Shown piece after piece: positions 3,754 to 27,056 of a stretch of DNA of 64,000 nt. Position numbers and translations under genes: made by a program. The stretch is taken from NCBI RefSeq assembly GCF_003018235.1, contig NZ_CP027437.1, one strand, 5' to 3'. This DNA is from Escherichia coli. GTDB taxonomy: Bacteria; Pseudomonadota; Gammaproteobacteria; Enterobacterales; Enterobacteriaceae. The notes beneath the pieces are model-generated. The model saw nothing but the letters and a program-made list of their open reading frames with translations. It did not search any database and was not told the origin of the DNA. Numbering within the stretch: position 1 is the first letter of the stretch; each line of letters starts with the position of its first letter.

Positions 3754-4072
3754 GCTTTCCCCATCTTACTTAGTCTGTCAGGCGTGGTCAGTCGCACCGG
3801 ACACAAAACATGATTCTGCGGTTGGCTATCGGCAAGCGTGGAGTTTAACTTGAGCATCATTAAGCACATCACAGTAACCGCTGATCATAGCAAACCCTCT
3901 GAAGGCGGAATATCAGCAAATTCCTGGAGTTATTTCAACCTATTGACTTTTAATTTGATTTGAGGACGATTATTTATTAAGTTACATAAATGTAAATAAC
4001 ATGCAATTCACATTGCCGAAAGCGTGTCCGATATCGCACAATAACCGCTGATTTCACAGCATAGATCCCACG

Positions 4073-4633
4073 ATGAGCAAATCATTACAAAAACCCACCA
4101 TTCTGAATGTTGAAACTGTAGCCCGTTCCCGACTGTTTACCGTCGAAAGCGTGGATCTGGAGTTCAGCAATGGCGTGCGGCGTGTTTATGAACGAATGCG
4201 TCCAACCAACCGGGAAGCAGTGATGATTGTGCCGATTGTGGACGATCACCTGATCCTGATCCGCGAATACGCAGTGGGAACTGAATCCTACGAATTAGGT
4301 TTTTCGAAAGGATTAATTGATCCGGGTGAAAGCGTCTTCGAAGCCGCGAACCGCGAGCTAAAAGAAGAGGTGGGATTTGGTGCGAACGATCTGACTTTTT
4401 TGAAGAAGCTCAGTATGGCACCGTCTTACTTTTCCAGCAAAATGAATATCGTGGTAGCGCAAGATCTCTACCCGGAATCGCTGGAAGGCGATGAGCCAGA
4501 GCCGCTACCACAGGTGCGCTGGCCGCTGGCGCATATGATGGATTTGCTGGAAGACCCTGACTTCAACGAAGCGCGTAATGTCAGCGCGCTGTTCCTCGTG
4601 CGCGAATGGTTGAAAGGGCAGGGGCGAGTGTAA
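4073..4633 (+). CDS. nudE: ADP-sugar diphosphatase NudE (Nudix hydrolase)
   Basis: 186-aa ORF with Nudix box-like GLIDPGESVFEAANRELKEEVGF; divergent from igaA as in E. coli. Confidence 0.92.
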   Translation: MSKSLQKPTILNVETVARSRLFTVESVDLEFSNGVRRVYERMRPTNREAVMIVPIVDDHLILIREYAVGTESYELGFSKGLIDPGESVFEAANRELKEEVGFGANDLTFLKKLSMAPSYFSSKMNIVVAQDLYPESLEGDEPEPLPQVRWPLAHMMDLLEDPDFNEARNVSALFLVREWLKGQGRV

Positions 4634-4800: not shown

Positions 4801-7353
4801 TCAGAACAATTCCTGTGCCTCGCCATTATCGATAATGGTCGTTCCCACCTCGTGCACCGCCTGTTGTGTCGGCTGCGTACCTTCGATGAAATACTCTTCG
4901 CGGCTGTTGCCACCATTAGCTAACTGCCCGGTGCTGCGATCGATATTCACCGTCACAATACCCGGCGGCGGCGTCAGCGGCTGCTCCGGCACACCTTCAA
5001 GAACGGCTTTCATATAAGCGTCCCATGCAGGCTGGGCACTCTTGGCACCGCCTTCGTAACCTGAGATCTGATCTTTAATCGCTCCGGAAGCCGTTGTATG
5101 ACCGAGATTACGACGGTGATCATCAAAGCCAATCCAGACCGAGGTCACAACGCCCGGACCGTAACCCGAAAACCACGCATCTTTCGAACTGTTAGTGGTA
5201 CCGGTTTTCCCGCCGATATCGCGACGCTGCAAATCACGACCTGCACGCCAGCCGGTACCCTGCCAGCCTGGCTCACCAAAGATATTGGTGTTCAAAGCAC
5301 TCTTAATCAGGAATGCCAGCGGAGTGTTGATGACGTGCGGTGCGTACTCCTGCGCGCCAGTCTTCGCCACTAACGCCTGATTTGCCTGCTCCAGCTGCGG
5401 CATTGGCACAGAAACATTCTGCTGCTCGCGGGAGATAGCGACATCTTCAACATCGTTATTTTCCAGCACGTTCGATTTCTGCGTATCACCGTAAATTACC
5501 GGAATATCGCATTCCGGGCAGGCTACTTTCGGTTTCGCTTCGAAAATCACGCCGCCCTGATCGTTTTCAATTTTGCTGATAAACCACGGGTCCACCAGGA
5601 AGCCGCCGTTCGCCATGACCGCGTAGCCGCGCGCCACCTGCATTGGGGTGAATGACGCTGAACCCAGCGCCAGCGATTCGGTGTGGACAATGTTTTGCGC
5701 CGGGAAGCCGAAGCGTTGCAGATATTCTGCAGCGTAGTCGACGCCCATCGCCCGCATTGCGCGTACCATCACCACGTTTTTCGACTGGCCCAGTCCCTGA
5801 CGTAAGCGAATTGGACCGGCATACTGCGGTGGTGAGTTCTTCGGCTGCCAGTCAGAACCGGCACCTGCATCCCAGCGGGAAATTGGCACATCGTTCAACA
5901 TACTTGCCAGCGTCAGACCTTTATCCATCGCCGCGGTGTAGAGGAACGGTTTGATGTTGGAACCTACCTGACGCAGTGCCTGGGTGGCGCGGTTAAACTT
6001 GCTCTGATTGAAATCAAAGCCACCGACCAGCGCCATAACGGCACCGTTTTGCGGATTGATCGACACCAGCGCCGAGTTCACTTCCGGCACTTGCGCCAGC
6101 CACCATGCATCGCCAACCTGACGAACCCAGATTTGCTGACCCGTTTGCAGAACATCGGTCACTTTACGCGGCGTCGGTCCCTGCTGAGTATCCGAACGGT
6201 AAGGACGCGCCCAGCGAACGCCTTCCATACTCAATGCGACGGTCGACCCGTCCGCCAGCATCGCCGTCGCTTCCTGAGGATTGGCGCTGGTGACTGCGGC
6301 AGGCAGCAGCGGACCATAGGTCGGCAGCGCCTTCAGCGTATCGGTAATCTTGTTGTTATCCCACGCCGATTCGCCCACCTTCCACAGCACATTTGCCGGG
6401 CCGCGATAGCCGTGGCGCATGTCGTAGTCCAGCACGTTATTACGTACTGCCTGCTGTGCGGCCTGCTGTACTTTGCGGGTGATGGTGGTGTAAATGCGAT
6501 AACCGTCTTCATAGGCACTTTCGCCATAACGGTTATACATCTCCTGGCGCACCATTTCGCTCAGGTACGGCGCAGAGAAAGCAATCTCCGGCGCGTGATA
6601 GTTAGCGTTAATCGCCTCAGTGCGTGTCTGATCGAACTGTTGTTGGGTGATATACCCTTCATCCAGCATCCGCGACAGCACGACGTTACGCCGCGCGACG
6701 GCACGATCCATCGAGTAGAGCGGGTTGAAGGTGGAAGGCGCTTTCGGCAGCCCGGCTATCACCGCCATTTCGTTCAGCGTCAGTTGGTCGACCGTTTTTC
6801 CGAAATAGACTTGTGCCGCAGCACCGACACCATAGGCGCGGTAACCGAGGTAAATCTTGTTCAGATAAAGCTCGAGGATCTCGTCTTTCGTCAGCAACTG
6901 TTCAATGCGAATCGCGAGGAAGACTTCCTTAATCTTACGCATCAGCGTGCGTTCTGGACTGAGGAAGAAGTTTCTCGCCAGCTGCTGGGTAATGGTACTC
7001 GCCCCTTGTGACGCGTGGCCGGAGAACAGCGCCACACTTGCCGCACGGAAGATCCCCACCGGGTCAACGCCGTGATGCTCGTAGAAGCGGCTGTCTTCCG
7101 TCGCGATAAAGGCTTTCACCATCTCCGGCGGGATTTGATCCAACGTAACCGGAATACGACGTTTCTCACCGTATTGAGCAATCAGCTCGCCATCGGCGCT
7201 GTAAATCTGCATCGGAATTTGCAGGCGAACATCTTTTAATGTCGCCACATCCGGCAGTTGTGGCTCGATGTAGCGGTATAGGCCATAAATCGAGCCTGCT
7301 CCCAGCAGAATGCAACAGACTGCAAGGATCAAAAAATACTTTACGAACTTCAC
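4801..7353 (-). CDS. mrcA: Penicillin-binding protein 1A (bifunctional transglycosylase/transpeptidase)
   Basis: ORF track 4801..7377 (858 aa); body matches recalled PBP1a. Annotated protein begins MKFVKYFLILAVCC, which is the GTG at 7353 (850 aa); the ATG at 7377 is an alternative. Confidence 0.93.
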   Translation of the reverse strand: MKFVKYFLILAVCCILLGAGSIYGLYRYIEPQLPDVATLKDVRLQIPMQIYSADGELIAQYGEKRRIPVTLDQIPPEMVKAFIATEDSRFYEHHGVDPVGIFRAASVALFSGHASQGASTITQQLARNFFLSPERTLMRKIKEVFLAIRIEQLLTKDEILELYLNKIYLGYRAYGVGAAAQVYFGKTVDQLTLNEMAVIAGLPKAPSTFNPLYSMDRAVARRNVVLSRMLDEGYITQQQFDQTRTEAINANYHAPEIAFSAPYLSEMVRQEMYNRYGESAYEDGYRIYTTITRKVQQAAQQAVRNNVLDYDMRHGYRGPANVLWKVGESAWDNNKITDTLKALPTYGPLLPAAVTSANPQEATAMLADGSTVALSMEGVRWARPYRSDTQQGPTPRKVTDVLQTGQQIWVRQVGDAWWLAQVPEVNSALVSINPQNGAVMALVGGFDFNQSKFNRATQALRQVGSNIKPFLYTAAMDKGLTLASMLNDVPISRWDAGAGSDWQPKNSPPQYAGPIRLRQGLGQSKNVVMVRAMRAMGVDYAAEYLQRFGFPAQNIVHTESLALGSASFTPMQVARGYAVMANGGFLVDPWFISKIENDQGGVIFEAKPKVACPECDIPVIYGDTQKSNVLENNDVEDVAISREQQNVSVPMPQLEQANQALVAKTGAQEYAPHVINTPLAFLIKSALNTNIFGEPGWQGTGWRAGRDLQRRDIGGKTGTTNSSKDAWFSGYGPGVVTSVWIGFDDHRRNLGHTTASGAIKDQISGYEGGAKSAQPAWDAYMKAVLEGVPEQPLTPPPGIVTVNIDRSTGQLANGGNSREEYFIEGTQPTQQAVHEVGTTIIDNGEAQELF

Positions 7354-7472
7354 TGGAAATTTCCCATTTAGTTTCATTTGGGCAGTTTATAAACAAACGC
7401 GCGGTAGTATAAAGGCAAGCCAGACGCATTGATATACCCGTCAGAGTGACGGGTGATAAGGAGATCATCACA

Positions 7473-8252
7473 ATGGCATTTAAGATCTGGCAAATTGGTT
7501 TGCATTTACAACAGCAAGAAGCGGTAGCGGTTGCGATCGTGCGGGGCACAAAAGAATGCTTTTTGCAACGCTGGTGGCGGTTGCCGCTGGAGAACGACAT
7601 TATCAAAGATGGGCGGATTGTTGATGCGCAGCGGCTGGCTAAAACGTTGTTACCGTGGAGTCGCGAACTGCCGCAGCGTCATCACATTATGTTGGCGTTT
7701 CCCGCCAGTCGCACATTACAGCGGTCATTTCCACGCCCGTCGATGTCCCTTGGTGAGCGGGAGCAAACGGCCTGGCTGTCCGGGACGATAGCCCGCGAGC
7801 TGGATATGGAGCCGGACTCCCTGCGCTTCGATTACAGCGAAGACTCACTCAGTCCCGCCTATAACGTGACTGCCGCGCAAAGCAAAGAGTTGGCAACGCT
7901 GCTTACTCTGGCAGAAAGGTTGCGTGTTCATGTTAGCGCGATCACCCCGGATGCCAGTGCATTACAGCGATTCCTGCCTTTTTTACCTTCTCATCAGCAA
8001 TGTCTGGCCTGGCGTGATAACGAACAGTGGCTGTGGGCGACGCGCTATAGCTGGGGGCGCAAACTGGCGGTGGGGATGACTAGCGCGAAGGAGCTGGCGG
8101 CAGCGTTATGTGTTGATCCCGAAAGCGTCGCGATATGTGGCGAAGGCGGATTTGACCCCTGGGAGGCGGTTTCTGTTCGTCAGCCGCCGCTACCGCCGCC
8201 AGGTGGAGACTTTGCCATCGCGCTGGGGCTGGCGCTTGGGAAGGTGTACTGA
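7473..8252 (+). CDS. hofM: DNA-uptake/pilus assembly protein HofM (PilM-like)
   Basis: ORF frame 7446..8252; likely start MAFKIWQIGLHLQQ gives 259 aa; first gene of hofMNOPQ, divergent from mrcA. Confidence 0.85.
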   Translation: MAFKIWQIGLHLQQQEAVAVAIVRGTKECFLQRWWRLPLENDIIKDGRIVDAQRLAKTLLPWSRELPQRHHIMLAFPASRTLQRSFPRPSMSLGEREQTAWLSGTIARELDMEPDSLRFDYSEDSLSPAYNVTAAQSKELATLLTLAERLRVHVSAITPDASALQRFLPFLPSHQQCLAWRDNEQWLWATRYSWGRKLAVGMTSAKELAAALCVDPESVAICGEGGFDPWEAVSVRQPPLPPPGGDFAIALGLALGKVY

Positions 8253-8791
8253 TGAACCCGCCAATTAATTTTTTGCCCTGGCGACAGCAACGCCGGACCG
8301 CTTTTCTTCGTTTCTGGTTGCTGATGTTCGTTGCGCCTCTGCTGCTGGCCGTCGGGATAACGCTAATACTGCGTCTGACAAGCAGCGCCGAAGCTCGCGT
8401 AGACGCCGTTTTGCTTCAGGCGGAACAACAACTCGCCCGCAGCTTACAGATAACGAAACCACGTTTGCTGGAACGCCAGCAGTTACGCGAACAGCGTTTG
8501 CAAAGGCAGCGCCAGCGACAATTTACCCGTGACTGGCAATCTGCGCTGGAAGCACTGGCGGCGCTTTTACCCGAACATGCCTGGCTGACAACGATAAGCT
8601 GGCAGCAGGGAACGCTGGAGATCAAGGGGCTTACAACAAGCATTACCGCGTTAAACGCACTAGAAACGTCACTCCGCCAGGATGCTTCTTTTCATCTCAA
8701 TCAGCGGGGGGCCACGCAGCAGGATGCGCAGGGACGCTGGCAATTTGAGTATCAGTTAACAAGGAAGGTTAGCGATGAACATGTTCTTTGA
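8252..8791 (+). CDS. hofN: DNA-uptake protein HofN (PilN-like)
   Basis: 179-aa ORF with single N-terminal TM helix; start overlaps hofM stop (ATGA). Confidence 0.85.
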   Translation: MNPPINFLPWRQQRRTAFLRFWLLMFVAPLLLAVGITLILRLTSSAEARVDAVLLQAEQQLARSLQITKPRLLERQQLREQRLQRQRQRQFTRDWQSALEALAALLPEHAWLTTISWQQGTLEIKGLTTSITALNALETSLRQDASFHLNQRGATQQDAQGRWQFEYQLTRKVSDEHVL

Positions 8792-9215
8792 CTGGTGGTT
8801 CTCCACATCACCCCGCCTCCGCCAGCTTTGCTGGGCAGTCTGGTTGCTGGTGTTAGTTACGCTCATTTTTCTGTCATCGACACACCAGGAAGAGCGCGAC
8901 GCATTAATTCGACTACGGGCGAGTCATCACCAGCAGTGGGCTGCACTGTATCGCCTGGTAGACGCCACTCCCTTCAGCGAGGAAAAAACGCAGCCCTTTT
9001 CGCCACTGGATTTTCAGTTGCCCGGCGCGCAACTGGTTTCCTGGCATCCATCCGCGCAGGGAGGTGAGTTGGCGTTGAAAACGCGGTGGGAAGCAGTGCC
9101 GTCGGCATTTACACGGCTGGCAGAGCGCAACGTCAGCGTGAGCCGTTTTTCGTTAAGCGTGGAAGGTGATGACCTTTTGTTCACGCTACAACTGGAGACG
9201 CCGCATGAGGGTTAA
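8775..9215 (+). CDS. hofO: DNA-uptake protein HofO (PilO-like)
   Basis: 146-aa ORF, N-terminal TM helix, overlaps hofN 3-prime end. Confidence 0.83.
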   Translation: MNMFFDWWFSTSPRLRQLCWAVWLLVLVTLIFLSSTHQEERDALIRLRASHHQQWAALYRLVDATPFSEEKTQPFSPLDFQLPGAQLVSWHPSAQGGELALKTRWEAVPSAFTRLAERNVSVSRFSLSVEGDDLLFTLQLETPHEG

Positions 9216-9609
9216 ACGCTGGTTGTTGGCAGGTATTGCATTGTGCCTTTTAACCGGTATGCGTGACCCTTTTAAACCGCCGGAAGATCTATGCCGGATT
9301 AGCGAACTTAGCCAGTGGCGCTATCAGGGGATAGTAGGGCGAGGCGAGCGCATCATCGGTGTAATAAAAGACGGGCAAAAGAAATGGCGACGGGTGCAGC
9401 AAAACGATGTGCTGGAAAACGGTTGGACAATTTTACAGCTGACGCCAGACGCACTAACGCTGGGAACCGGAACAAACTGCGAACCGCCACACTGGTTGTG
9501 GCAACGGCAAGGAGATACAAATGAAGCAATGGATAGCCGCACTACTGTTGATGCTGATACCCGGCGTACAGGCGGCAAAGCCGCAAAAAGTGACGCTGAT
9601 GGTGGATGA
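9205..9609 (+). CDS. hofP: DNA-uptake lipoprotein HofP (PilP-like)
   Basis: ORF frame 9166..9609; likely start MRVKRWLLAGIALCLLTGMRDPF (lipobox-like LLTG) gives 134 aa. Confidence 0.8.
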   Translation: MRVKRWLLAGIALCLLTGMRDPFKPPEDLCRISELSQWRYQGIVGRGERIIGVIKDGQKKWRRVQQNDVLENGWTILQLTPDALTLGTGTNCEPPHWLWQRQGDTNEAMDSRTTVDADTRRTGGKAAKSDADGG

Positions 9610-10759
9610 CGTTCCGGTAGCTCAGGTGTTGCAGGCGCTGGCTGAACAGGAGAAGTTGAACCTGGTCGTGTCGCCAGACGTCAGCGGTACGGTGTCGTTA
9701 CATCTAACAGATGTTCCCTGGAAGCAGGCACTACAAACTGTAGTAAAAAGCGCCGGACTGATAACGCGGCAGGAAGGCAATATTCTCTCGGTGCATTCCG
9801 TTGCCTGGCAGAATGACAATATCGCCCGCCAGGAGGCGGAGCAGGCGCGGGCGCAGGCAAATCTGCCGCTGGAAAATCGCAATATTACTCTGCAATACGC
9901 CGACGCCGGAGAGCTGGCGAAAGCGGGGGAGAAGCTACTGAGTGCCAAAGGGAGTATGACCGTCGATAAACGCACCAATCGCCTTTTGCTGCGAGATAAC
10001 AAAACGGCGTTAAGCGCCCTTGAACAGTGGGTAGCGCAAATGGATCTGCCGGTCGGGCAGGTTGAGCTGTCGGCGCATATTGTCACCATTAATGAAAAAA
10101 GTTTGCGTGAGTTAGGCGTGAAATGGACGCTGGCCGATGCGCAACAAGCTGGTGGCGTTGGGCAAGTCACCACGCTTGGCAGCGACCTCTCCGTAGCGAC
10201 GGCGACAACGCATGTCGGTTTTAACATTGGACGCATCAACGGACGTTTACTGGATCTTGAGCTTTCCGCGCTCGAACAAAAACAGCAGCTGGATATTATC
10301 GCCAGTCCGCGTCTGCTGGCCTCACATCTTCAGCCTGCCAGCATTAAACAGGGGAGCGAAATTCCATATCAGGTTTCCAGCGGGGAAAGTGGCGCGACGT
10401 CGGTGGAATTTAAAGAGGCCGTCCTGGGGATGGAAGTTACGCCCACGGTGTTACAAAAAGGTCACATCCGGCTGAAATTACACATCAGCCAGAACGTTCC
10501 GGGGCAGGTGCTACAGCAGGCCGATGGCGAAGTGTTGGCGATTGATAAGCAGGAGATCGAAACGCAGGTCGAGGTCAAAAGCGGAGAAACGTTGGCGCTG
10601 GGCGGCATTTTTACCCGTAAAAATAAATCGGGTCAGGATAGCGTACCGTTGCTTGGCGACATTCCCTGGTTCGGGCAATTATTTCGTCATGACGGAAAAG
10701 AAGATGAACGACGCGAGTTAGTGGTGTTTATCACGCCACGACTGGTTTTCAGTGAGTAA
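9521..10759 (+). CDS. hofQ: Outer-membrane secretin HofQ (ComE/PilQ-like)
   Basis: 412-aa ORF with signal peptide MKQWIAALLLMLIPGVQA and secretin C-terminal domain; last gene of hof operon. Confidence 0.9.
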   Translation: MKQWIAALLLMLIPGVQAAKPQKVTLMVDDVPVAQVLQALAEQEKLNLVVSPDVSGTVSLHLTDVPWKQALQTVVKSAGLITRQEGNILSVHSVAWQNDNIARQEAEQARAQANLPLENRNITLQYADAGELAKAGEKLLSAKGSMTVDKRTNRLLLRDNKTALSALEQWVAQMDLPVGQVELSAHIVTINEKSLRELGVKWTLADAQQAGGVGQVTTLGSDLSVATATTHVGFNIGRINGRLLDLELSALEQKQQLDIIASPRLLASHLQPASIKQGSEIPYQVSSGESGATSVEFKEAVLGMEVTPTVLQKGHIRLKLHISQNVPGQVLQQADGEVLAIDKQEIETQVEVKSGETLALGGIFTRKNKSGQDSVPLLGDIPWFGQLFRHDGKEDERRELVVFITPRLVFSE

Positions 10760-11159
10760 ACAGCCGTAAAAGCGGTAATGTTTTTACGCTGAACGTGTTT
10801 CATCTATTTGACGCGCGCAGGTATTTAGCATACAAGGAGTACCGATTTGAGAGTTGGTGCTCTTCGCTGCCTGCGTTCCATGATGATGATTTATCATTCA
10901 GGCGGCATTTTGCTGTCTTTTTTACGCTAATCTTACCCGGTGATTTATCGCCAGAGCGGTGGTAGCAAGGCAGCGCGCTTGCAGCGACCAGATATGCAGA
11001 GGGATGGGTGATTTATTCAGTTGCCAAACCCGCTGGAGTATTGAGATAATTTTCAGTCTGACTCTCGCAATATCTTATGAGGTTTCAGTTCATGTCCTGC
11101 GGCGCTCTCTGAGCGAAGCGGGTTTATCATTAACGAATAGTCTTAGTAGTACCGAAAAA

Positions 11160-11681
11160 ATGGCAGAGAAACGCAATATCTTTCTGGTTGGGCCTATGGG
11201 TGCCGGAAAAAGCACTATTGGGCGCCAGTTAGCTCAACAACTCAATATGGAATTTTACGATTCCGATCAAGAGATTGAGAAACGAACCGGAGCTGATGTG
11301 GGCTGGGTTTTCGATTTAGAAGGCGAAGAAGGCTTCCGCGATCGCGAAGAAAAGGTCATCAATGAGTTGACCGAGAAACAGGGTATTGTGCTGGCTACTG
11401 GCGGCGGCTCTGTGAAATCCCGCGAAACGCGTAACCGTCTTTCCGCACGTGGCGTTGTCGTTTATCTTGAAACGACCATCGAAAAGCAACTTGCACGCAC
11501 GCAGCGTGATAAAAAACGCCCGTTGCTGCACGTTGAAACACCGCCGCGTGAAGTTCTGGAAGCGTTGGCCAATGAACGCAATCCGCTGTATGAAGAGATT
11601 GCCGACGTGACCATTCGTACTGATGATCAAAGCGCTAAAGTGGTCGCAAACCAGATTATTCACATGCTGGAAAGCAACTAA
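11160..11681 (+). CDS. aroK: Shikimate kinase I
   Basis: ORF frame 10959..11681; annotated start [25 protein letters not shown] (Walker A) at ATG 11160 gives 173 aa. Confidence 0.95.
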
Positions 11682-11737
11682 TTCTGGCTTTATATACACT
11701 CGTCTGCGGGTACAGTAATTAAGGTGGATGTCGCGTT

Positions 11738-12826
11738 ATGGAGAGGATTGTCGTTACTCTCGGGGAACGTAGTTACCCAATTACCATCGCATCTGGTTTG
11801 TTTAATGAACCAGCTTCATTCTTACCGCTGAAATCGGGCGAGCAGGTCATGTTGGTTACCAACGAAACCCTGGCTCCTCTGTATCTCGATAAGGTCCGCG
11901 GCGTACTTGAACAGGCGGGTGTTAACGTCGATAGCGTTATCCTCCCTGACGGCGAGCAGTATAAAAGCCTGGCTGTACTCGATACCGTCTTTACGGCGTT
12001 GTTACAAAAACCGCATGGTCGCGATACTACGCTGGTGGCGCTTGGCGGCGGCGTAGTGGGCGATCTGACCGGCTTTGCGGCGGCGAGTTATCAGCGCGGT
12101 GTACGTTTCATTCAAGTCCCGACGACGTTGCTGTCGCAGGTCGATTCCTCCGTTGGCGGCAAAACTGCGGTCAACCATCCCCTCGGTAAAAACATGATTG
12201 GCGCGTTCTACCAGCCTGCTTCAGTGGTGGTGGATCTCGACTGTCTGAAAACGCTTCCCCCGCGTGAGTTAGCGTCGGGGCTGGCAGAAGTCATCAAATA
12301 CGGCATTATTCTTGACGGTGCGTTTTTTAACTGGCTGGAAGAAAATCTGGATGCGTTGTTGCGTCTGGACGGTCCGGCAATGGCGTACTGTATTCGCCGT
12401 TGTTGTGAACTGAAGGCAGAAGTTGTCGCCGCCGACGAGCGCGAAACCGGGTTACGTGCTTTACTGAATCTGGGACACACCTTTGGTCATGCCATTGAAG
12501 CTGAAATGGGGTATGGCAATTGGTTACACGGTGAAGCGGTTGCTGCGGGTATGGTGATGGCGGCGCGGACGTCGGAACGTCTCGGGCAGTTTAGTTCTGC
12601 CGAAACGCAGCGTATTATAACCCTGCTCACGCGGGCTGGGTTACCGGTCAATGGGCCGCGCGAAATGTCTGCGCAGGCGTATTTACCGCATATGCTGCGT
12701 GACAAGAAAGTCCTTGCGGGAGAGATGCGCTTAATTCTTCCGTTGGCAATTGGTAAGAGTGAAGTTCGCAGCGGCGTTTCGCACGAGCTTGTTCTTAACG
12801 CCATTGCCGATTGTCAATCAGCGTAA
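11738..12826 (+). CDS. aroB: 3-dehydroquinate synthase
   Basis: 362-aa [25 protein letters not shown]... matches AroB; follows aroK. Confidence 0.95.
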
Positions 12827-17590: not shown

Positions 17591-17604
17591 TTTAACATTA
17601 ATGC

Positions 17605-17632
17605 CAAAAACCGGGGAAACCCGGTTTTTTTA
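17605..17632 (+). terminator. Rho-independent terminator of the aroK...trpS transcription unit
   Basis: aaaaaccgggg-aaa-ccccggttttttt immediately after the trpS stop. Confidence 0.8.
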
Positions 17633-17750
17633 TCCTCTTTTTGCAATAATCCGAAAAAATGTGAAGCGCCTCGCCGTTTCCACATCTCGCAGTTGCCACT
17701 TATCTTCATTTTTATGAAGATATAAATATTCACTTTATTGAAAATTTACT

Positions 17751-18656
17751 ATGCGTCGAACGTTTATCAAAAAAGAAGGCGTCGTCATCACGACACTGGC
17801 CCGTTATTTGTTGGGTGAAAAGTGCGGTAATCGACTGAAAACCATAGATGAGCTGGCAACTGAATGCCGTTCATCCGTTGGCCTGACGCAGGCCGCGTTG
17901 AAAACGCTGGAATCAAGCGGAGCGATACGGATTGAACGCCGTGGGCGCAATGGCAGTTATCTGGTCGAGATGGATAACAAAGCATTGCTGACTCATGTGG
18001 ATATCAACAACGTGGTATGTGCGATGCCCTTGCCCTATACCCGTTTGTACGAAGGCCTGGCGAGCGGATTGAAAGCCCAATTTGATGGCATTCCTTTTTA
18101 CTATGCGCACATGCGCGGCGCGGATATTCGCGTGGAGTGTCTGCTTAATGGCGTGTATGACATGGCGGTGGTTTCCCGACTGGCGGCGGAAAGTTATCTC
18201 ACGCAAAAAGGGTTATGCCTCGCGCTGGAGTTGGGGCCGCACACCTACGTTGGCGAGCACCAGTTGATTTGCCGTAAAGGCGAGTCCGCAAACGTGAAGC
18301 GCGTGGGGCTGGATAACCGTTCGGCGGATCAGAAAATCATGACCGATGTCTTTTTTGGCGATAGTGATGTGGAACGTGTCGATCTCTCTTATCACGAGAG
18401 TTTACAACGCATTGTTAAAGGCGATGTCGATGCGGTTATCTGGAACGTGGTGGCGGAAAACGAACTGACCATGCTGGGATTAGAAGCGACGCCGCTCACA
18501 GACGATCCGCGATTTTTACAGGCCACCGAAGCCGTGGTTTTGACGCGAGTCGATGATTACCCGATGCAACAATTGCTGCGTGCAGTTGTTGATAAACAGG
18601 CCCTGCTTGCCCATCAACAACGAGTGGTCAGTGGGGAACAGGAACCCAGTTATTAA
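17751..18656 (+). CDS. yhfZ: Putative DNA-binding transcriptional regulator YhfZ
   Basis: 301-aa ORF; first gene of the yhfZ–yhfS cluster, directly after trpS as in E. coli. Confidence 0.85.
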   Translation: MRRTFIKKEGVVITTLARYLLGEKCGNRLKTIDELATECRSSVGLTQAALKTLESSGAIRIERRGRNGSYLVEMDNKALLTHVDINNVVCAMPLPYTRLYEGLASGLKAQFDGIPFYYAHMRGADIRVECLLNGVYDMAVVSRLAAESYLTQKGLCLALELGPHTYVGEHQLICRKGESANVKRVGLDNRSADQKIMTDVFFGDSDVERVDLSYHESLQRIVKGDVDAVIWNVVAENELTMLGLEATPLTDDPRFLQATEAVVLTRVDDYPMQQLLRAVVDKQALLAHQQRVVSGEQEPSY

Positions 18657-18672
18657 ACCAAAGGCATCTGAA

Positions 18673-19035
18673 ATGGAAACCAGACTCAACCTGCTTTGCG
18701 ATGCAGGCGTTATTGATAAGGACATCTGCAAAGGCATGATGCAGGTCGTCAATGTCCTGGAAACAGAGTGCCATCTACCGGTGCGCAGTGAGCAAGGAAC
18801 GATGGCGATGACACATATGGCGAGTGCACTGATGCGCAGTCGCCGTGGTGAAGAAATAGAGCCGCTGGACGCCGAATTGCTGGCAGAACTGGCGCAATCC
18901 AGCCACTGGCAAGCCGTTGTGCAATTGCATCAGGTGTTGTTGAAGGAATTTACACTGGAAGTTAACCCGTGTGAAGAAGGCTATTTGCTGGCCAACCTTT
19001 ATGGATTATGGATGGCTGCTAACGAAGAGGTTTGA
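18673..19035 (+). CDS. yhfY: PRD-domain protein YhfY
   Basis: ORF frame 18553..19035; likely start METRLNLLCDAGVIDKDICKGM at ATG 18673 gives 120 aa. Confidence 0.8.
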   Translation: METRLNLLCDAGVIDKDICKGMMQVVNVLETECHLPVRSEQGTMAMTHMASALMRSRRGEEIEPLDAELLAELAQSSHWQAVVQLHQVLLKEFTLEVNPCEEGYLLANLYGLWMAANEEV

Positions 19036-19118
19036 AGCTCCCGACAAATCCACGTCGCACAACCTAAATATTCAAAAAAATGAATATTTAATTCAAGGAA
19101 CAGAAACGAGGCAACAAG

Positions 19119-20282
19119 ATGTTTGTAGAAGCATTGAAACGCCAGAACCCGGCGCTAATTTCCGCCGCACTAAGCTTGTGGCAAAAGGGCAAGATCGCCC
19201 CGGACAGCTGGGTGATCGACGTGGATCAGATACTGGAAAACGGTAAGCGGCTGATTGAGACGGCGCGGCTTTACGGCATTGAACTGTATCTGATGACTAA
19301 GCAGTTTGGTCGTAATCCGTGGCTGGCGGAAAAACTGCTGCCATTAGGCTACAGCGGCATTGTGGCGGTGGATTACAAAGAGGCGCGAGTCATGCGCCGC
19401 GCCGGTTTGCCGGTGGCGCATCAGGGGCATCTGGTACAAATCCCTTGTCATCAGGTGGCTGACGCCGTTGCACAGGGCACCGACGTCATCACCGTGTTTA
19501 CTCTCGACAAAGCGCGGGAAGTTTCTGCGGCAGCGGTGAAGGCCGGACGTGTGCAGTCTGTGCTGCTCAAAGTTTATAGCGACGATGATTTTCTTTATCC
19601 GGGGCAGGAGAGCGGTTTTGTACAGCATTCGCTGCACGAGGTGGTTGCTGAAATTAAGAAACTGCCGGGGTTGCATTTAGCTGGACTAACCCATTTCCCT
19701 TGCCTGCTTTGGGATGAGGCTGCCGGGAAAGTTTTGCCGACACCGAATCTTCACACGCTGGTACAGGCACGGGATCAACTGGCGAAATCTGGTATTGCGA
19801 TTGAGCAACTGAACGCGCCTTCAGCGACCAGCTGCACTTCGCTGCCATTACTGGCGGAATACGGTGTGACTCATGCCGAACCCGGTCATGCGCTGACGGG
19901 CACTATTCCGGCAAACCAGCAGGGCGATCAGCCTGAACGTATCGCGATGCTCTGGTTAAGTGAAATCTCCCATCATTTCCGTGGCGACAGCTACTGCTAC
20001 GGCGGCGGTTACTACCGTCGTGGTCATGCGCAACATGCGCTGGTGTTTACGCCAGAAAATCAAAAGATTACTGAAACCAATCTCAAAACTGTGGATGACA
20101 GCAGTATCGACTACACCCTGCCGCTGGCAGGCGAGTTTCCGGTAAGCAGTGCAGTAGTGCTCTGTTTTCGCACGCAGATTTTTGTCACCCGTAGCGATGT
20201 GGTGTTGGTGTCTGGTATTCATCGTGGCGAACCGGAAATCGTCGGTCGTTATGACAGCCTCGGCAACCCTCTGGAGGCGTAA
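19119..20282 (+). CDS. yhfX: Putative PLP-dependent alanine-racemase-fold protein YhfX
   Basis: 387-aa ORF; position and length match yhfX. Confidence 0.82.
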   Translation: MFVEALKRQNPALISAALSLWQKGKIAPDSWVIDVDQILENGKRLIETARLYGIELYLMTKQFGRNPWLAEKLLPLGYSGIVAVDYKEARVMRRAGLPVAHQGHLVQIPCHQVADAVAQGTDVITVFTLDKAREVSAAAVKAGRVQSVLLKVYSDDDFLYPGQESGFVQHSLHEVVAEIKKLPGLHLAGLTHFPCLLWDEAAGKVLPTPNLHTLVQARDQLAKSGIAIEQLNAPSATSCTSLPLLAEYGVTHAEPGHALTGTIPANQQGDQPERIAMLWLSEISHHFRGDSYCYGGGYYRRGHAQHALVFTPENQKITETNLKTVDDSSIDYTLPLAGEFPVSSAVVLCFRTQIFVTRSDVVLVSGIHRGEPEIVGRYDSLGNPLEA

Positions 20283-21509
20283 ATGGCGCGATTTGTGGTG
20301 TTAGTGATTGATAGCTTTGGCGTAGGGGCAATGAAAGATGTCACGTTGGTGCGTCCGCAGGATGCCGGGGCGAATACCTGTGGTCACATCCTGAGCCAGT
20401 TGCCGCATTTGCAGCTATCAGCGCTGGAGAAGCTGGGGCTAATCAACGCATTGGGTTATGCACCAGGTGATATGCAACCGTCAGATTCCGCAACCTGGGG
20501 GGGGGCAGAACTGCAACATGAAGGTGGCGATACCTTTATGGGGCATCAGGAAATTTTAGGCACGCGCCCGTTACCGCCGCTGCGGATGCCTTTTCGCGAT
20601 GTGATTGACCGTGTTGAGCAGGCATTAGTATCCGCCGGTTGGCAGGTGGAGCGCCGTGGCGATGATCTGCAATTTCTGTGGGTCAATCAGGCGGTTGCGA
20701 TTGGCGATAATCTCGAGGCGGATTTAGGCCAGGTCTATAACATCACCGTCAATCTCTCTGTGATCTCTTTTGACGACGCAATCAAAATTGGTCGTATCGT
20801 GCGTGAGCAGGTACAGGTCGGTCGGGTCATTACATTTGGCGGCCTGTTAACTGACAGTCAACGCATTCTCGATGCCGCAGAAAGTAAAGAAGGGCGCTTT
20901 ATTGGCATTAATGCGCCGCGTTCAGGCGCTTATGACAACGGCTTCCAGGTCGTGCATATGGGCTACGGTGTTGATGAAAAAGTGCAGGTGCCGCAAAAAC
21001 TGTATGAAGCGGGCGTGCCAACCGTGCTGGTGGGTAAGGTGGCGGATATCGTCAGCAATCCTTATGGCGTGAGCTGGCAAAACCTGGTGGATAGCCAGCG
21101 GATTATGGATATCACCCTCGACGAATTTAACACGCATCCGACGGCGTTTATTTGCACCAATATCCAGGAAACCGACCTCGCTGGTCACGCGGAAGACGTC
21201 GCACGTTATGCCGAACGTTTGCAGGTCGTTGACCGTAACCTTGCCCGGCTTATTGAGGCGATGCAGCCAGATGATTGCCTGGTCGTGATGGCGGATCACG
21301 GTAACGATCCGACCATTGGTCACAGCCACCATACCCGCGAAGTGGTGCCAGTGCTGGTTTATCAGCAAGGGATGGTCGCTACGCAGCTCGGTGTGCGCAC
21401 CACGCTTTCTGATGTGGGGGCTACCGTGTGTGAATTTTTCCGTGCGCCACCGCCACAAAATGGTCGCTCTTTTCTTTCCTCCCTCCGGTTTGCAGGAGAC
21501 ACCCTATGA
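20283..21509 (+). CDS. yhfW: Putative phosphopentomutase-family metalloenzyme YhfW
   Basis: 408-aa ORF starting one base after the yhfX stop. Confidence 0.82.
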
Positions 21510-22384
21510 GTTTTGATCCGACGGGCTACACCCTCGCCCATGAGCATCTGCATATTGATCTCTCCGGCTTTAAAAACAACGTGGACTGCCGCCTTGATCA
21601 GTATGCGTTCATTTGCCAGGAAATGAACGACCTGATGGCCCAGGGCGTGCGTAATGTGATTGAGATGACCAACCGTTATATGGGGCGCAATGCGCAATTT
21701 ATGCTCGATGTAATGCGCGAAACCGGCATCAACGTGGTGGCCTGTACCGGTTATTACCAGGACGCGTTTTTCCCGCAACATGTGGCGACCCGCAGCGTGC
21801 AGGAACTGGCGCAAGAGATGGTCGATGAAATTGAGCAGGGTATCGATGGCACTGACCTGAAAGCCGGGATCATCGCGGAGATTGGCTCCAGCGAAGGGAA
21901 GATTACGCCGCTGGAAGAGAAGGTGTTTATTGCCGCCGCGCTGGCACATAACCAGACCGGACGCCCGATCTCCACACATACCTCTTTTAGCACGATGGGG
22001 CTGGAACAACTGGCTCTGTTGCAAGCCCACGGAGTTGATCTTTCGCGCGTCACCGTTGGTCACTGCGATCTGAAAGACAACCTCGACAACATTTTGAAGA
22101 TGATCGATCTCGGCGCGTATGTGCAGTTCGACACCATCGGCAAGAACAGTTACTACCCGGACGAAAAGCGCATTGCGATGCTCCATGCGCTACGTGACCG
22201 TGGGTTGCTGAACCGCGTCATGCTGTCGATGGATATTACGCGCCGCTCCCATTTAAAAGCCAACGGTGGTTATGGCTATGACTATTTATTGACCACCTTT
22301 ATTCCGCAATTGCGCCAGTCAGGATTCAGTCAGGCCGATGTGGATGTGATGTTACGTGAAACTCCCTCTCAATTTTTCCAATAA
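21506..22384 (+). CDS. php: Phosphotriesterase homology protein (amidohydrolase superfamily)
   Basis: 292-aa [25 protein letters not shown] (HxH metal-binding motif); overlaps yhfW stop. Confidence 0.88.
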
Positions 22385-22394
22385 GGACAGACTC

Positions 22395-22748
22395 ATGAAA
22401 AAGATTGGTGTTGCAGGCTTACAGCGTGAGCAGATTAAAAAAACCATTGAAGCGACGGCTCCTGGCTGTTTTGAAGTTTTCATTCACAACGACATGGAAG
22501 CGGCAATGAAAGTGAAATCCGGGCAACTGGATTACTACATCGGCGCGTGTAATACCGGTGCGGGCGCGGCATTGTCGATTGCCATCGCGGTGATTGGCTA
22601 TAACAAAAGTTGCACCATTGCCAAACCAGGCATTAAAGCGAAAGACGAACATATCGCCAAAATGATCGCCGAAGGGAAAGTGGCGTTTGGGCTTTCCGTT
22701 GAGCATGTCGAACACGCGATTCCGATGCTGATTAACCATCTGAAATAA
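22395..22748 (+). CDS. yhfU: DUF2620-family protein YhfU
   Basis: ORF frame 22356..22748; likely start MKKIGVAGLQREQIKK gives 117 aa. Confidence 0.8.
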   Translation: MKKIGVAGLQREQIKKTIEATAPGCFEVFIHNDMEAAMKVKSGQLDYYIGACNTGAGAALSIAIAVIGYNKSCTIAKPGIKAKDEHIAKMIAEGKVAFGLSVEHVEHAIPMLINHLK

Positions 22749-22759
22749 AAGGCACGACT

Positions 22760-24064
22760 ATGGATCTGTATATTCAGATTATCGTGGTGGCGTGCCTGAC
22801 GGGTATGACATCGCTTCTGGCGCATCGCTCGGCGGCTGTTTTTCATGACGGTATCCGCCCGATCCTGCCACAACTGATTGAAGGCTATATGAACCGTCGC
22901 GAGGCGGGGAGTATCGCTTTTGGTCTGAGCATTGGTTTTGTGGCCTCGGTGGGGATCTCGTTTACCCTGAAAACCGGGCTGCTCAACGCATGGTTACTCT
23001 TTCTTCCTACCGATATCCTCGGCGTACTGGCGATAAACAGCCTGATGGCGTTTGGTCTTGGCGCTATCTGGGGCGTGTTGATCCTTACTTGCCTGTTGCC
23101 GGTAAACCAGCTGCTGACCGCGCTACCGGTGGATGTATTAGGTAGCCTGGGGGAATTAAGCTCACCGGTGGTTTCAGCTTTTGCACTGTTCCCGTTGGTG
23201 GCGATTTTCTACCAGTTTGGCTGGAAGCAAAGTCTGATCGCCGCCGTGGTGGTACTGATGACCCGTGTGGTGGTAGTGCGCTATTTCCCGCATCTCAATC
23301 CGGAATCCATCGAAATCTTTATTGGCATGGTGATGCTGCTGGGGATCGCGATAACTCACGACCTGCGTCATCGTGATGAAAATGATATTGATGCCAGCGG
23401 GCTTTCGGTGTTTGAAGAACGCACGTCGCGGATTATCAAAAACTTACCGTATATCGCTATTGTCGGGGCGCTGATTGCCGCCGTTGCCAGCATGAAGATT
23501 TTTGCTGGCAGTGAAGTGTCGATCTTCACACTGGAGAAAGCATATTCCGCAGGCGTAACGCCGGAACAATCACAAACGCTGATTAACCAGGCAGCTCTGG
23601 CGGAATTTATGCGCGGGCTGGGTTTTGTACCGTTGATTGCCACCACCGCGTTAGCCACTGGTGTGTATGCAGTTGCGGGCTTTACCTTTGTTTATGCGGT
23701 GGGCTATCTCTCGCCGAATCCGATGGTTGCAGCGGTATTAGGCGCAGTGGTTATTTCGGCGGAAGTCTTGCTGCTTCGTTCGATCGGCAAATGGCTGGGG
23801 CGCTACCCGTCGGTGCGTAATGCGTCGGATAACATCCGTAATGCCATGAATATGCTGATGGAAGTGGCGTTGCTGGTCGGTTCGATTTTCGCAGCAATTA
23901 AAATGGCGGGTTATACCGGATTCTCTATCGCAGTTGCCATTTACTTCCTCAACGAATCCCTGGGCCGTCCGGTACAGAAAATGGCGGCACCAGTCGTAGC
24001 CGTAATGATCACCGGTATTCTGCTGAATGTTCTTTACTGGCTTGGCCTGTTCGTTCCGGCTTAA
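22760..24064 (+). CDS. yhfT: Putative inner-membrane transporter YhfT
   Basis: 434-aa highly hydrophobic ORF with multiple predicted TM helices. Confidence 0.85.
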   Translation: MDLYIQIIVVACLTGMTSLLAHRSAAVFHDGIRPILPQLIEGYMNRREAGSIAFGLSIGFVASVGISFTLKTGLLNAWLLFLPTDILGVLAINSLMAFGLGAIWGVLILTCLLPVNQLLTALPVDVLGSLGELSSPVVSAFALFPLVAIFYQFGWKQSLIAAVVVLMTRVVVVRYFPHLNPESIEIFIGMVMLLGIAITHDLRHRDENDIDASGLSVFEERTSRIIKNLPYIAIVGALIAAVASMKIFAGSEVSIFTLEKAYSAGVTPEQSQTLINQAALAEFMRGLGFVPLIATTALATGVYAVAGFTFVYAVGYLSPNPMVAAVLGAVVISAEVLLLRSIGKWLGRYPSVRNASDNIRNAMNMLMEVALLVGSIFAAIKMAGYTGFSIAVAIYFLNESLGRPVQKMAAPVVAVMITGILLNVLYWLGLFVPA

Positions 24065-24075
24065 GGAAGGCACCT

Positions 24076-25161
24076 ATGAAGACGTTTCCTCTGCAAAGCC
24101 TGACGATTATTGAGGCGCAGCAAAAGCAGTTTGCGCTGGTGGATAGCATTTGTCGCCATTTTCCTGGTAGCGAATTTCTTACCTGCGGTGATTTGGGATT
24201 AACGCCGGGACTGAATCAACCGTGCATTACCCAGCGTGTGGAACAGGTGCTGGCTGATGCATTTCACGCACAGGCTGCGGCGCTGGTACAGGGCGCGGGT
24301 ACTGGCGCGATCCGTGCGGCGTTGGCGGCTTTGCTCAAACCGGGGCAGCGTCTTCTGGTGCATGACGCGCCGGTTTACCCGACGACTCAGGTCATTATTG
24401 AGCAGATGGGGCTGACGCTTATCACTGCTGATTTCAATGACCTGTTGGCACTGAAGCAGGTTGTCGACGAGCAACAACCAGATGCCGCGCTGGTGCAGCA
24501 TACGCGCCAGCAGCCGCAGGACGGGTACATTCTGGCAGATGTGCTGGCAACGTTGCGCTCGGCTGGCGTTCCTGCATTAACCGATGACAACTATGCGGTG
24601 ATGAAAGTGGCGCGAATTGGCTGCGAATGCGGAGCAAATGTCTCGACTTTTTCCTGCTTCAAGCTGTTTGGGCCGGAGGGTGTTGGCGCGGTGGTAGGTG
24701 ATGCCGATGTTATTAGTCGGATTCGCGCCACGCTCTATTCCGGCGGCAGCCAGATTCAGGGCGCTCAGGCGCTGGAAGTCTTGCGTGGGCTGGTGTTTGC
24801 GCCAGTGATGCACGCGGTGCAGGCGGGGGTATCTGAACGGTTGCTGGCTTTGCTTAACGGCGGCGCGGTGGCGGAAGTGAAAAGCGCCGTCATTGCCAAT
24901 GCACAGTCGAAGGTATTGATTGTGGAGTTTCATCAGCCGATTGCCGTCAGAGTGCTGGAAGAGGCGCAGAAACTCGGTGCCTTGCCTTACCCGGTTGGTG
25001 CAGAGTCGAAATATGAAATCCCGCCGCTCTTTTATCGACTTTCCGGAACGTTTCGCCAGGCGAATCCGCAGTTAGAACATTGCGCGATTCGCATTAACCC
25101 AAATCGCAGCGGTGAAGAGACGATATTGCGGATCTTGCGTGAAAGTATTGCCAGCATTTAA
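24076..25161 (+). CDS. yhfS: Putative PLP-dependent enzyme YhfS
   Basis: 361-aa ORF; last gene of the cluster. Confidence 0.83.
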   Translation: MKTFPLQSLTIIEAQQKQFALVDSICRHFPGSEFLTCGDLGLTPGLNQPCITQRVEQVLADAFHAQAAALVQGAGTGAIRAALAALLKPGQRLLVHDAPVYPTTQVIIEQMGLTLITADFNDLLALKQVVDEQQPDAALVQHTRQQPQDGYILADVLATLRSAGVPALTDDNYAVMKVARIGCECGANVSTFSCFKLFGPEGVGAVVGDADVISRIRATLYSGGSQIQGAQALEVLRGLVFAPVMHAVQAGVSERLLALLNGGAVAEVKSAVIANAQSKVLIVEFHQPIAVRVLEEAQKLGALPYPVGAESKYEIPPLFYRLSGTFRQANPQLEHCAIRINPNRSGEETILRILRESIASI

Positions 25162-25203
25162 TCGTTGTAAACGATATTTTTGAAAAGAATGCAGAAACAA
25201 ATA

Positions 25204-25227
25204 CGCCCTCGGATTACTCCGAGGGCG
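25204..25227. terminator. Bidirectional terminator hairpin between convergent yhfS and yhfL
   Basis: cgccctcgg-attact-ccgagggcg stem-loop in the ~110-bp yhfS–yhfL spacer. Confidence 0.6.
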
Positions 25228-25271
25228 TCAGGCAATTAAACCGGCGTTAGCCGATTTCTGTCAGAGACTTA

Positions 25272-25436
25272 CTATGCAGTCGGACCGCAACCGCCAATGA
25301 TTTTAGAAATAGAAATTGCCGGGTGCAGCAGGTAGTCGTAAGAGCAGTTCTTATCACGGTTTTCAATATGACCAGTACATGCAGTTAACGTAGCCAGTAC
25401 TGCGCCTACCAGTGCAACTTTAATAAATTTGTTCAT
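25272..25436 (-). CDS. yhfL: Small lipoprotein YhfL
   Basis: Not in ORF track (too short). Reverse-strand translation MNKFIKVALVGAVLATLTACTGHIENRDKNCSYDYLLHPAISISKIIGGCGPTA, 54 aa, lipobox LTAC; matches recalled YhfL. Confidence 0.85.
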   Translation of the reverse strand: MNKFIKVALVGAVLATLTACTGHIENRDKNCSYDYLLHPAISISKIIGGCGPTA

Positions 25437-25682
25437 TTACATTCCCTATGTATTATATATTGATTAATATTCATTGATTATATGAATATAAGCAGACTGC
25501 TCATTAAGAACGATACAGGAATATTTAATTAGCGTCAGTGAGTGAATGGCTTAATTTTGTAAGTCGCTGTAACGGTGAATATAACCCATTAGCAGATAAT
25601 ATTTATTAAGGGGTTATGTTTTATTTGCTGAATATATAAAAAGAGTCATTAAGAAGGCCAGAATTCTCTGGCCTGGGTTACA

Positions 25683-27056
25683 TTAATGGTTGGAGAACCA
25701 GTTCAGTTTATCGCGCAGGCCAACAACCCGACCAATAATAATTAGCGATGGACTGTTCATTTGCTGCGCCAGTTCGCCCAGCTGCGAGAGTGTACCGTCA
25801 ATCACGCGCTGCGTGACTGCCGTTCCGTTTTCGACAATTGCCACCGGCATTTCGCCAGGCATACCGTGTTCAATCAGCTTTTGCTGAATAGTCGCGGCCT
25901 GATTCAACCCCATATAGAACACCAGCGTCTGTTTTTCTGCCGCCAGGTTTTCCCAGTCCAGTTCGCCACCGGTTTTTAAGTGTCCGGTAATTAAGCGTAC
26001 GCTCTGGGCATAATCGCGATGCGTGAGCGGAATACCCGAATAGGCAGAGCAACCAGAAGCTGCGGTAATACCCGGAACCACCGAGAACGGAATACCCGCG
26101 TTGCACAGTGTTTCCAGCTCTTCGCCACCACGGCCAAAAATAAACGGATCGCCGCCTTTCAGCCGCACCACGCGTTTGCCTTTTTGCGCTTCCCGTAGCA
26201 GGATCTGGTTTATCTCTTCCTGCGGTACGCAGTGGTATCCCGCGCGTTTGCCGACGAAAACGCGATCAGCATCGCGGCGTACCAGATTCATAATATCGTC
26301 AGAAACCAGACGGTCGTAAACCACCACATCTGCCTGCTGAATTTGTTGCAGACCCTTCAGTGTCAGCAGCCCGGCATCGCCCGGACCTGCGCCAACCAGC
26401 ACCACTTCACCGCGATGATCGAGCGGTTCATTGATTAACTGTTCGGTCGTTTCAGTAATGGCTTTCTGATCGTTGTTTGCCAGCGACTGCGCCAGGCGGT
26501 CGTTAACGAACAATTTCTCCCAGAAACGGCGACGCTCACCCATCGTGGCGAACTGTTGTTTCACTCGCCCGCGTAATTGCCCGGCGTATTTCGCTACCTG
26601 GCCCAGATGCAACGGCAGCAGTGATTCGAGTTTTTCGCGCAACAGGCGTGCCAGAACCGGAGAGGTGCCGCCAGAGGAGACCGCGACCATGAGCGGTGAG
26701 CGGTCAATAATCGACGGCATAATAAAGCTGGCGGCTTTCGGCGCATCGACCACGTTACAGAAGATGCGACGAGCTTCAGCGGCTTCACTGACGCGCTGGT
26801 TAAGCGCGTCATCATCCGTCGCTGCAATCGCCAGCCAGCAGGTGTCGAGAAGGCTTTCATCAAATGGCCCTTCGACGAGGGTTAACATGCCTGCATCTGC
26901 CCATGCGGTGAACTGTGGAATAAACGCTAATGCATTCACCGTTAAGCGAGCGCCTGCGTCTAACAGCAACCTTGCTTTGCGTTCCGCGACATCACCACCG
27001 CCGACAATCAGACAGTCGCGATCGCGTAATTGGCAAAATATAGGCAAATGATCCAC
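25683..27056 (-). CDS. cysG: Siroheme synthase (multifunctional)
   Basis: 457-aa [35 protein letters not shown]... matches CysG; last gene of nirBDC-cysG. Confidence 0.96.

Follow-up and report, generated by a model that had tools for sequence, protein, structure and literature searches.

The frl-free yhfS–yhfL junction of an Escherichia coli strain is a common polymorphism and very probably the pre-insertion state

We analysed the junction of the genes yhfS and yhfL in a 64,000-nt stretch of Escherichia coli DNA, referred to as the window throughout. yhfS (24076–25161, plus strand) is intact, encodes a PLP-dependent aminotransferase-fold enzyme of 361 aa and is the final gene of the yhfZ–yhfS cluster; it was located by reading frame and translation and is annotated as yhfS in the matching RefSeq records. 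yhfL (25272–25436, minus strand) encodes a small DUF4223-family protein of 54 aa, a label that derives from the Pfam assignment of the homologous gene. The two genes are convergent and adjacent across an intergenic spacer of 110 bp (25162–25271), which aligns over its full length to frl-free E. coli and to other Escherichia, and they are annotated in the same way in strains AST215, HM670 and C5. The gene names rest on annotated RefSeq homologues, since NCBIfam gave weak PLP-enzyme matches for YhfS and none for YhfL. An Rfam scan of 24800–25800 returned solely a sub-threshold match to SgrS (E = 0.66) and hence no known RNA in the spacer. The right-hand flank is conserved, with cysG (25683–27056, minus strand) sharing 98.1% of its nucleotides with K-12. 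YhfS is 96% identical to its K-12 counterpart at the amino acid level and 91.8% at the nucleotide level, and YhfL is 100% identical to the K-12 protein apart from its missing final residue. At 25272–25274 a TAG replaces the final sense codon CAG of K-12, AST215 and HM670, so that YhfL has 54 aa instead of 55, and the original TAA follows directly after the new stop.

The dominant feature of the spacer is a hairpin, identified by an inverted repeat search, with a perfect 11-bp stem (25203–25213 paired with 25218–25228; 8 G-C pairs among the 11) and a 4-nt loop. Folding of the spacer against shuffled controls gave z = −4.8 and −5.2. The stem is kept across 12 Escherichia loci, and in three lineages one of its pairs has changed in a compensatory manner, from G-C to A-U or U-A. 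On the minus strand the stem is followed by the T-rich tail ATTTGTTTCT at 25202–25193, and the terminator scan reports this strand only; on the plus strand, the sequence after the stem is CAGGCAATTAAACC, which is not the U-tract of a bidirectional terminator. Because the T-run is present on the minus strand only, we assign the hairpin to yhfL: it is a predicted intrinsic terminator of that gene (25193–25228, minus strand) and not truly shared with yhfS. An initial reading of the sequence had described a terminator hairpin shared by both genes; the hairpin is real, and its sharing does not stand. K-12 keeps the same hairpin between yhfL and frlA, and it is therefore no product of the frl-free arrangement.

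The K-12 arrangement was taken from the annotated K-12-lineage record NZ_CP062246, in which the gene order is trpS, yhfZ-Y-X-W, php, yhfU-T-S, frlR-D-C-B-A, yhfL, cysG, nirC-D-B, with frlR, frlD, frlC, frlB and frlA on the strand opposite to yhfS. Alignment of the window to this locus by blastn breaks at window position 25162 (locus 10161, one base past the yhfS stop codon) and restarts at 25193 (locus 15404), which is precisely where the terminator tail ends. Between these breakpoints, 5,242 bp of K-12 stand in place of a 30-bp segment of the window (25163–25192) that is unique to frl-free alleles. The K-12 segment comprises a boxC-like repeat, a REP repeat, frlR-D-C-B-A and the frlA promoter region. 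The two short interspersed repeats that open the block, which we take to be a boxC-like and a REP element, occupy segment positions 29–86 and 103–152 and have copies elsewhere in every E. coli genome. Over the whole 64 kb of the window, neither the five K-12 Frl proteins (tblastn) nor the K-12 frl segment (blastn, word size 7) gave a match above chance level, and no boxC-like, REP or frlA-promoter sequence was found at the window junction. These comparisons bear out three claims of the earlier note, namely (i) that the stop codons of yhfS and yhfL, at 25161 and 25272, lie about 110 bp apart, as the reading frames and translations confirm, (ii) that frl sits between yhfL and yhfS in K-12, and (iii) that frlABCDR is missing from this interval in the window with no gene remnants.

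The frequency of both arrangements was determined in 5,426 complete E. coli genomes. A contiguous frl-free yhfS–yhfL junction is present in 2,107 of them (~39%), and at least 80% of the frl segment is present in 3,297. Within the latter, 342 are of the O157:H7 type, in which trpS abuts frlR and the yhfZ–yhfS cluster is missing, so that the shares come to 39% frl-free, ~54% K-12-type and 6% O157-type without the yhf cluster. Frl-free genomes match the frl segment solely through its two short repeats. The sum of both classes (2,107 + 3,297 = 5,404 genomes) is consistent with mutual exclusivity of the two states and with frl not having been relocated elsewhere. The frl-free haplotypes are very diverse, with 91.5–98.1% identity to the window over 2 kb.

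The carriers of frl share their junctions. In O157:H7 EDL933 (locus 3985–4116) the whole yhfZ–yhfS cluster is absent, and trpS is followed by a boxC-like and a REP repeat and then by frlR; in this strain an internal stop interrupts frlD, which is annotated as a pseudogene. Strain E69 (CP089930.1) is titled E. coli; at yhfT and cysG its identity to all E. coli is 93–94.5%, a divergence of ~6% that makes it about as distant as E. whittamii. Its frlRDCBA (locus 5130–10456) occupies precisely the junctions of K-12, in a segment 93.6% identical to that of K-12. The right junction is common to K-12, E69 and EDL933 and the left junction to K-12 and E69; this indicates one insertion event and points to a single origin of the frl+ alleles. 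Because so diverged a strain as E69 carries frl at the K-12 junctions, the insertion is either old or has crossed lineage boundaries within Escherichia.

To place the frl-free junction among related species, we used YhfS of the window to search the representative genome of each GTDB species and located the K-12 proteins in the 80 loci that this search yielded. None of these 80 loci bears the name E. fergusonii, E. marmotae or E. ruysiae, and outgroup sampling is to that extent incomplete. A direct yhfS–yhfL(–cysG) arrangement without frl was found in E. whittamii, E. albertii, Escherichia sp. MOD1-EC7003 and strain SCPM-O-B-8794, and also in five Citrobacter, one Enterobacter and four Buttiauxella loci and one Enterobacteriaceae MAG. 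frlR-D-C-B-A between yhfS and yhfL was found in 1 of the 80 loci returned, that of strain E69. In Superficieibacter electus (L017, 11303–18700) and Citrobacter koseri (L069, 11398–17702), about 6–7 kb lie between yhfL and cysG, an insertion point in the same neighbourhood that is distinct from the frl site. In an alignment of nine frl-free loci, the window spacer is collinear over its full length with the frl-free E. coli strains AST215, HM670, C5 and 14EC033 as well as with E. whittamii, E. albertii, MOD1-EC7003 and SCPM-O-B-8794, and the 30 bp at 25163–25192 are present in all aligned frl-free E. coli and in the four non-coli Escherichia lineages. In K-12, E69 and EDL933, shuffle tests of the sequence upstream of the yhfL terminator revealed no counterpart of these 30 bp. 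Taken together, the window allele very probably represents the ancestral yhfS–yhfL junction into which frl was never inserted, and the frl+ alleles would be derived.

The region next to the junction has a history of recombination. Across E. coli, yhfS alleles share 88–94% of their nucleotides (~96% aa), which is near between-species distance, whereas yhfT, cysG and nirC are 95–99% identical within the species. The window allele of yhfS is rare, with AST215 alone reaching 98% over 24000–26000. It is a mosaic of AST215-like and HM670-like segments: identity to AST215 is 98–100% over most of its length, and identity to HM670 is 89–92% in the first two thirds and 99–100% in the last third. The yhf cluster as a whole (17600–25161, yhfZ–yhfS) is 95.6% identical to K-12, its flanks ~98%. 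The diversity of yhfS is not sorted by frl state. Frl-free strain C5 encodes a YhfS protein identical to that of K-12 (yhfS 99.8% at the nucleotide level) and has a cysG 99.9% identical to that of O157:H7 EDL933, a combination which shows that recombination has reassorted the indel relative to its flanks. Strain 14EC033 is likewise frl-free, has the spacer and K-12-type terminator loop seen in C5, a yhfS 94.7% identical to K-12 and an IS1 between yhfL and cysG; in the extracted loci of C5 and 14EC033 (L084 and L086) the observation refers to 4161–4266. As yhfS beside the indel is only 88–93% identical to K-12, we also considered that the 3′ end of a donor yhfS had been transferred together with frl, an idea ruled out by yhfS of C5 and by a diversity that does not follow the frl state.

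Such recombination leaves room for a reversion, in which the lineage of the sampled strain was once frl+ and then imported a frl-free yhfS–yhfL segment from other E. coli by homologous recombination. The visible mosaicism of the locus, the reassortment of the indel in C5 and the age of the frl allele implied by E69 are all compatible with this course of events. However, nothing in the sampled strain speaks positively for it, the diversity of frl-free haplotypes fits an old and vertically maintained state, and the outgroups favour the frl-free junction as the starting state; we consider reversion improbable.

A precise deletion, by which an ancestor of the K-12-like frl+ type would have shed its 5.2-kb frl segment through excision or slipped recombination, is far less probable still and is refuted for a parent allele of the K-12 type. 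By eye, K-12 has the 6-bp motif ATTTAA at the yhfS stop codon and a second time some 40 nt upstream of the yhfL terminator, and the pair could pass for a flanking direct repeat. Excision between these repeats would, however, leave AGTGAAAATATTTTTACGGGCGGGGGCAAGAAGGACAT, and the window has TCGTTGTAAACGATATTTTTGAAAAGAATGC, which matches the outgroup spacers; in shuffle tests the two types of stretch are no more similar than expected by chance (p about 0.1–0.98). In a deletion derivative every base of the junction would also occur in the frl+ parent and scars would be expected. The window junction instead contains the 30 bp missing from frl+ alleles, which a deletion could not have recreated, so that the window allele cannot stem from such alleles by deletion, and it contains no remnant of frl or of the boxC-like and REP repeats. 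Moreover, species without frl at the yhfS–yhfL site have the same spacer. Direct repeats shared by the spacer and K-12 (ATTTAA and GTGAA..TTTT..CGG) were evaluated as candidate scars and rejected, being at chance level against shuffled sequences. The earlier note had left two origins side by side, precise deletion and a frl-free state that is ancestral; the collinear spacer of the outgroups strongly supports the ancestral state, and the 30 bp missing from frl+ alleles refute the deletion. The deletion scars or short repeats that the note had proposed to look for at the K-12 junctions did not emerge from the alignment, in which similarity stayed at chance level. An assembly artefact, by which frl was dropped through a mis-join or a collapsed repeat, is the least probable of all and can be set aside, as the identical arrangement is present in 2,107 complete, independently assembled genomes and the boxC-like and REP repeats of the K-12-type junction are missing in the window, so that there is nothing to collapse on.

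With the window junction taken as ancestral, the K-12 arrangement would have arisen in one old event that put 5.2 kb straight after the yhfS stop codon, removed ~30 bp of the spacer and ended right at the T-tail of the yhfL terminator. The inserted block would have comprised the two short interspersed repeats, frlR-D-C-B-A and the frlA promoter. The resulting frl+ allele is now carried by ~61% of complete E. coli genomes, with the sampled strain among the other 39%. As to the mechanism of insertion, the K-12 segment contains no mobility genes (its annotated genes are the five frl genes only) and no target-site duplication was found, nor is there a shift in G+C content (53.8% against 53.5% and 54.0% in the flanks). 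The segment thus has none of the marks of a mobile genomic island, that is, an integrase or transposase, a tRNA target, a duplication or deviant G+C.

The relatives of frl outside E. coli are scattered. The closest FrlB proteins are those of a Serratia sp. (84%) and of Sodalis sp. C49 (83%), both of which have a complete frlABCDR set; further relatives follow at 79–73%, and the named ones below these (52–73%) are mostly from Firmicutes. This distribution suggests a patchily distributed operon rather than core genes of the Enterobacteriaceae. The Serratia sp. operon lies in an unrelated context. In Sodalis sp. C49 (CP163303.1, locus 6603–12604), frlABCDR shares 60–83% of its amino acids with K-12 and is convergent with trpS-gph-rpe-dam-damX-aroB, an adjacency of frl and trpS that is also that of O157:H7 and hints that the trpS-proximal position of frl is older than E. 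coli. A broader reading, which we put forward tentatively and consider possible rather than probable, is that the trpS–yhfL interval forms a modular locus with three states (yhf only as in the window, frl only as in O157:H7, or both as in K-12), in which frl derives from one ancient insertion and has persisted as a long-lived polymorphism that spans Escherichia lineages, given the junctions of E69, and that was reshuffled by recombination and possibly selected by diet or niche. If this held, the deep divergence of yhfS (88–94%) and the frl–trpS adjacency shared with Sodalis sp. C49 would be its traces, and the window would carry the pre-insertion allele of a long-lived balanced polymorphism.

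In strains with frl, FrlA imports fructoselysine, the kinase FrlD phosphorylates it and the deglycase FrlB cleaves fructoselysine 6-phosphate into glucose 6-phosphate and lysine; FrlC epimerises psicoselysine and FrlR represses the operon. The sampled strain would be without the FrlA transporter, the FrlD kinase, the FrlB deglycase, the FrlC epimerase and the FrlR repressor. It is therefore likely unable to catabolise fructoselysine or psicoselysine via the Frl route, and would be expected not to use these dietary Amadori compounds in that way. We infer both this phenotype and the absence of frl beyond the 64-kb window, and another frl locus, or an Amadori pathway unrelated to Frl, could lie elsewhere in the genome. 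Some carriers of frl have an altered operon as well: a FrlB allele with an in-frame deletion of 30 aa (residues 221–250 of K-12 FrlB) occurs on at least 97 E. coli contigs and sits in an otherwise K-12-type locus (L090, 9001–9933). The Frl pathway may thus be eroded also in some frl+ strains. For the catabolism of fructoselysine and psicoselysine we refer to Wiame et al. (2002 and 2004), as cited in PMC5996543 and PMC3505186, and for the regulation of the K-12 frlABCDR locus to bioRxiv 10.1101/2020.01.13.904318. The predicted phenotype agrees with genome-scale models of frl-negative B2 strains (PMC5996543).

Further along the chromosome, the window from cysG to argD is 98–99% identical to essentially all E. 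coli genomes. Its nearest complete genomes are those of AST215, strain 746, O166:H15 strains and avian isolates, none of them closer than ~99%. At 59753–61706 the window carries an IS100 of 1,954 bp (IS21 family, istA/istB) within gspM of the type II secretion (gsp) operon, flanked relative to AST215 by a 5-bp duplication (59748–59752 = 61707–61711). Strain I3 also has an IS100 in gspM, at another position (equivalent to window 59497), and gspM is intact in most complete genomes.

The frl-free junction is real and at the same time a common, documented polymorphism, the substance of which is already known; it is ordinary because ~39% of complete genomes share it and the literature describes it. 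In published genome-scale models, phylogroup B2 is reported to lack both the frl operon and the transporter for fructoselysine, with growth on fructoselysine or psicoselysine predicted for 0–3% of B2 strains versus 69–91% in the other groups (Fang et al. 2018, PMC5996543), and a recent preprint names this lack a hallmark of B2 (bioRxiv 10.1101/2025.09.14.675865). As it makes up 39% of the genomes, the frl-free state probably extends beyond B2. What is added here is the direction of the change, with the frl-free junction as the probable ancestral state and K-12 as an insertion minus 30 bp, together with the frequencies of the states. Its importance is modest: use of frl separates large E. coli lineages and is discussed for the gut-niche adaptation of B2 and of ExPEC.

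Three known systems can be set beside the window. Compared with the K-12 frlABCDR locus, the flanks (trpS and yhfZ–yhfS on one side, yhfL-cysG-nirCDB on the other) are identical in order and orientation and the yhfL terminator is common to both, whereas K-12 has 5,242 bp where the window has 30 bp. The O157:H7 variant represents another state of the trpS–yhfL interval; its frlA–yhfL junction and yhfL terminator are as in K-12, and it is the mirror image of the window in that it has frl and is without yhfZ–yhfS. The marker genes used for phylogroup typing are located elsewhere on the chromosome, and none is expected in the window. With the frl-negative B2 genotype, the window shares the lack of the frlA transporter and of frlBCD(R) and the abutment of yhfS on yhfL, a likeness of junction genotype and not a phylogroup assignment. 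Its spacer is identical over the first 60 nt to that of the frl-negative O2:H1 strain HM670.
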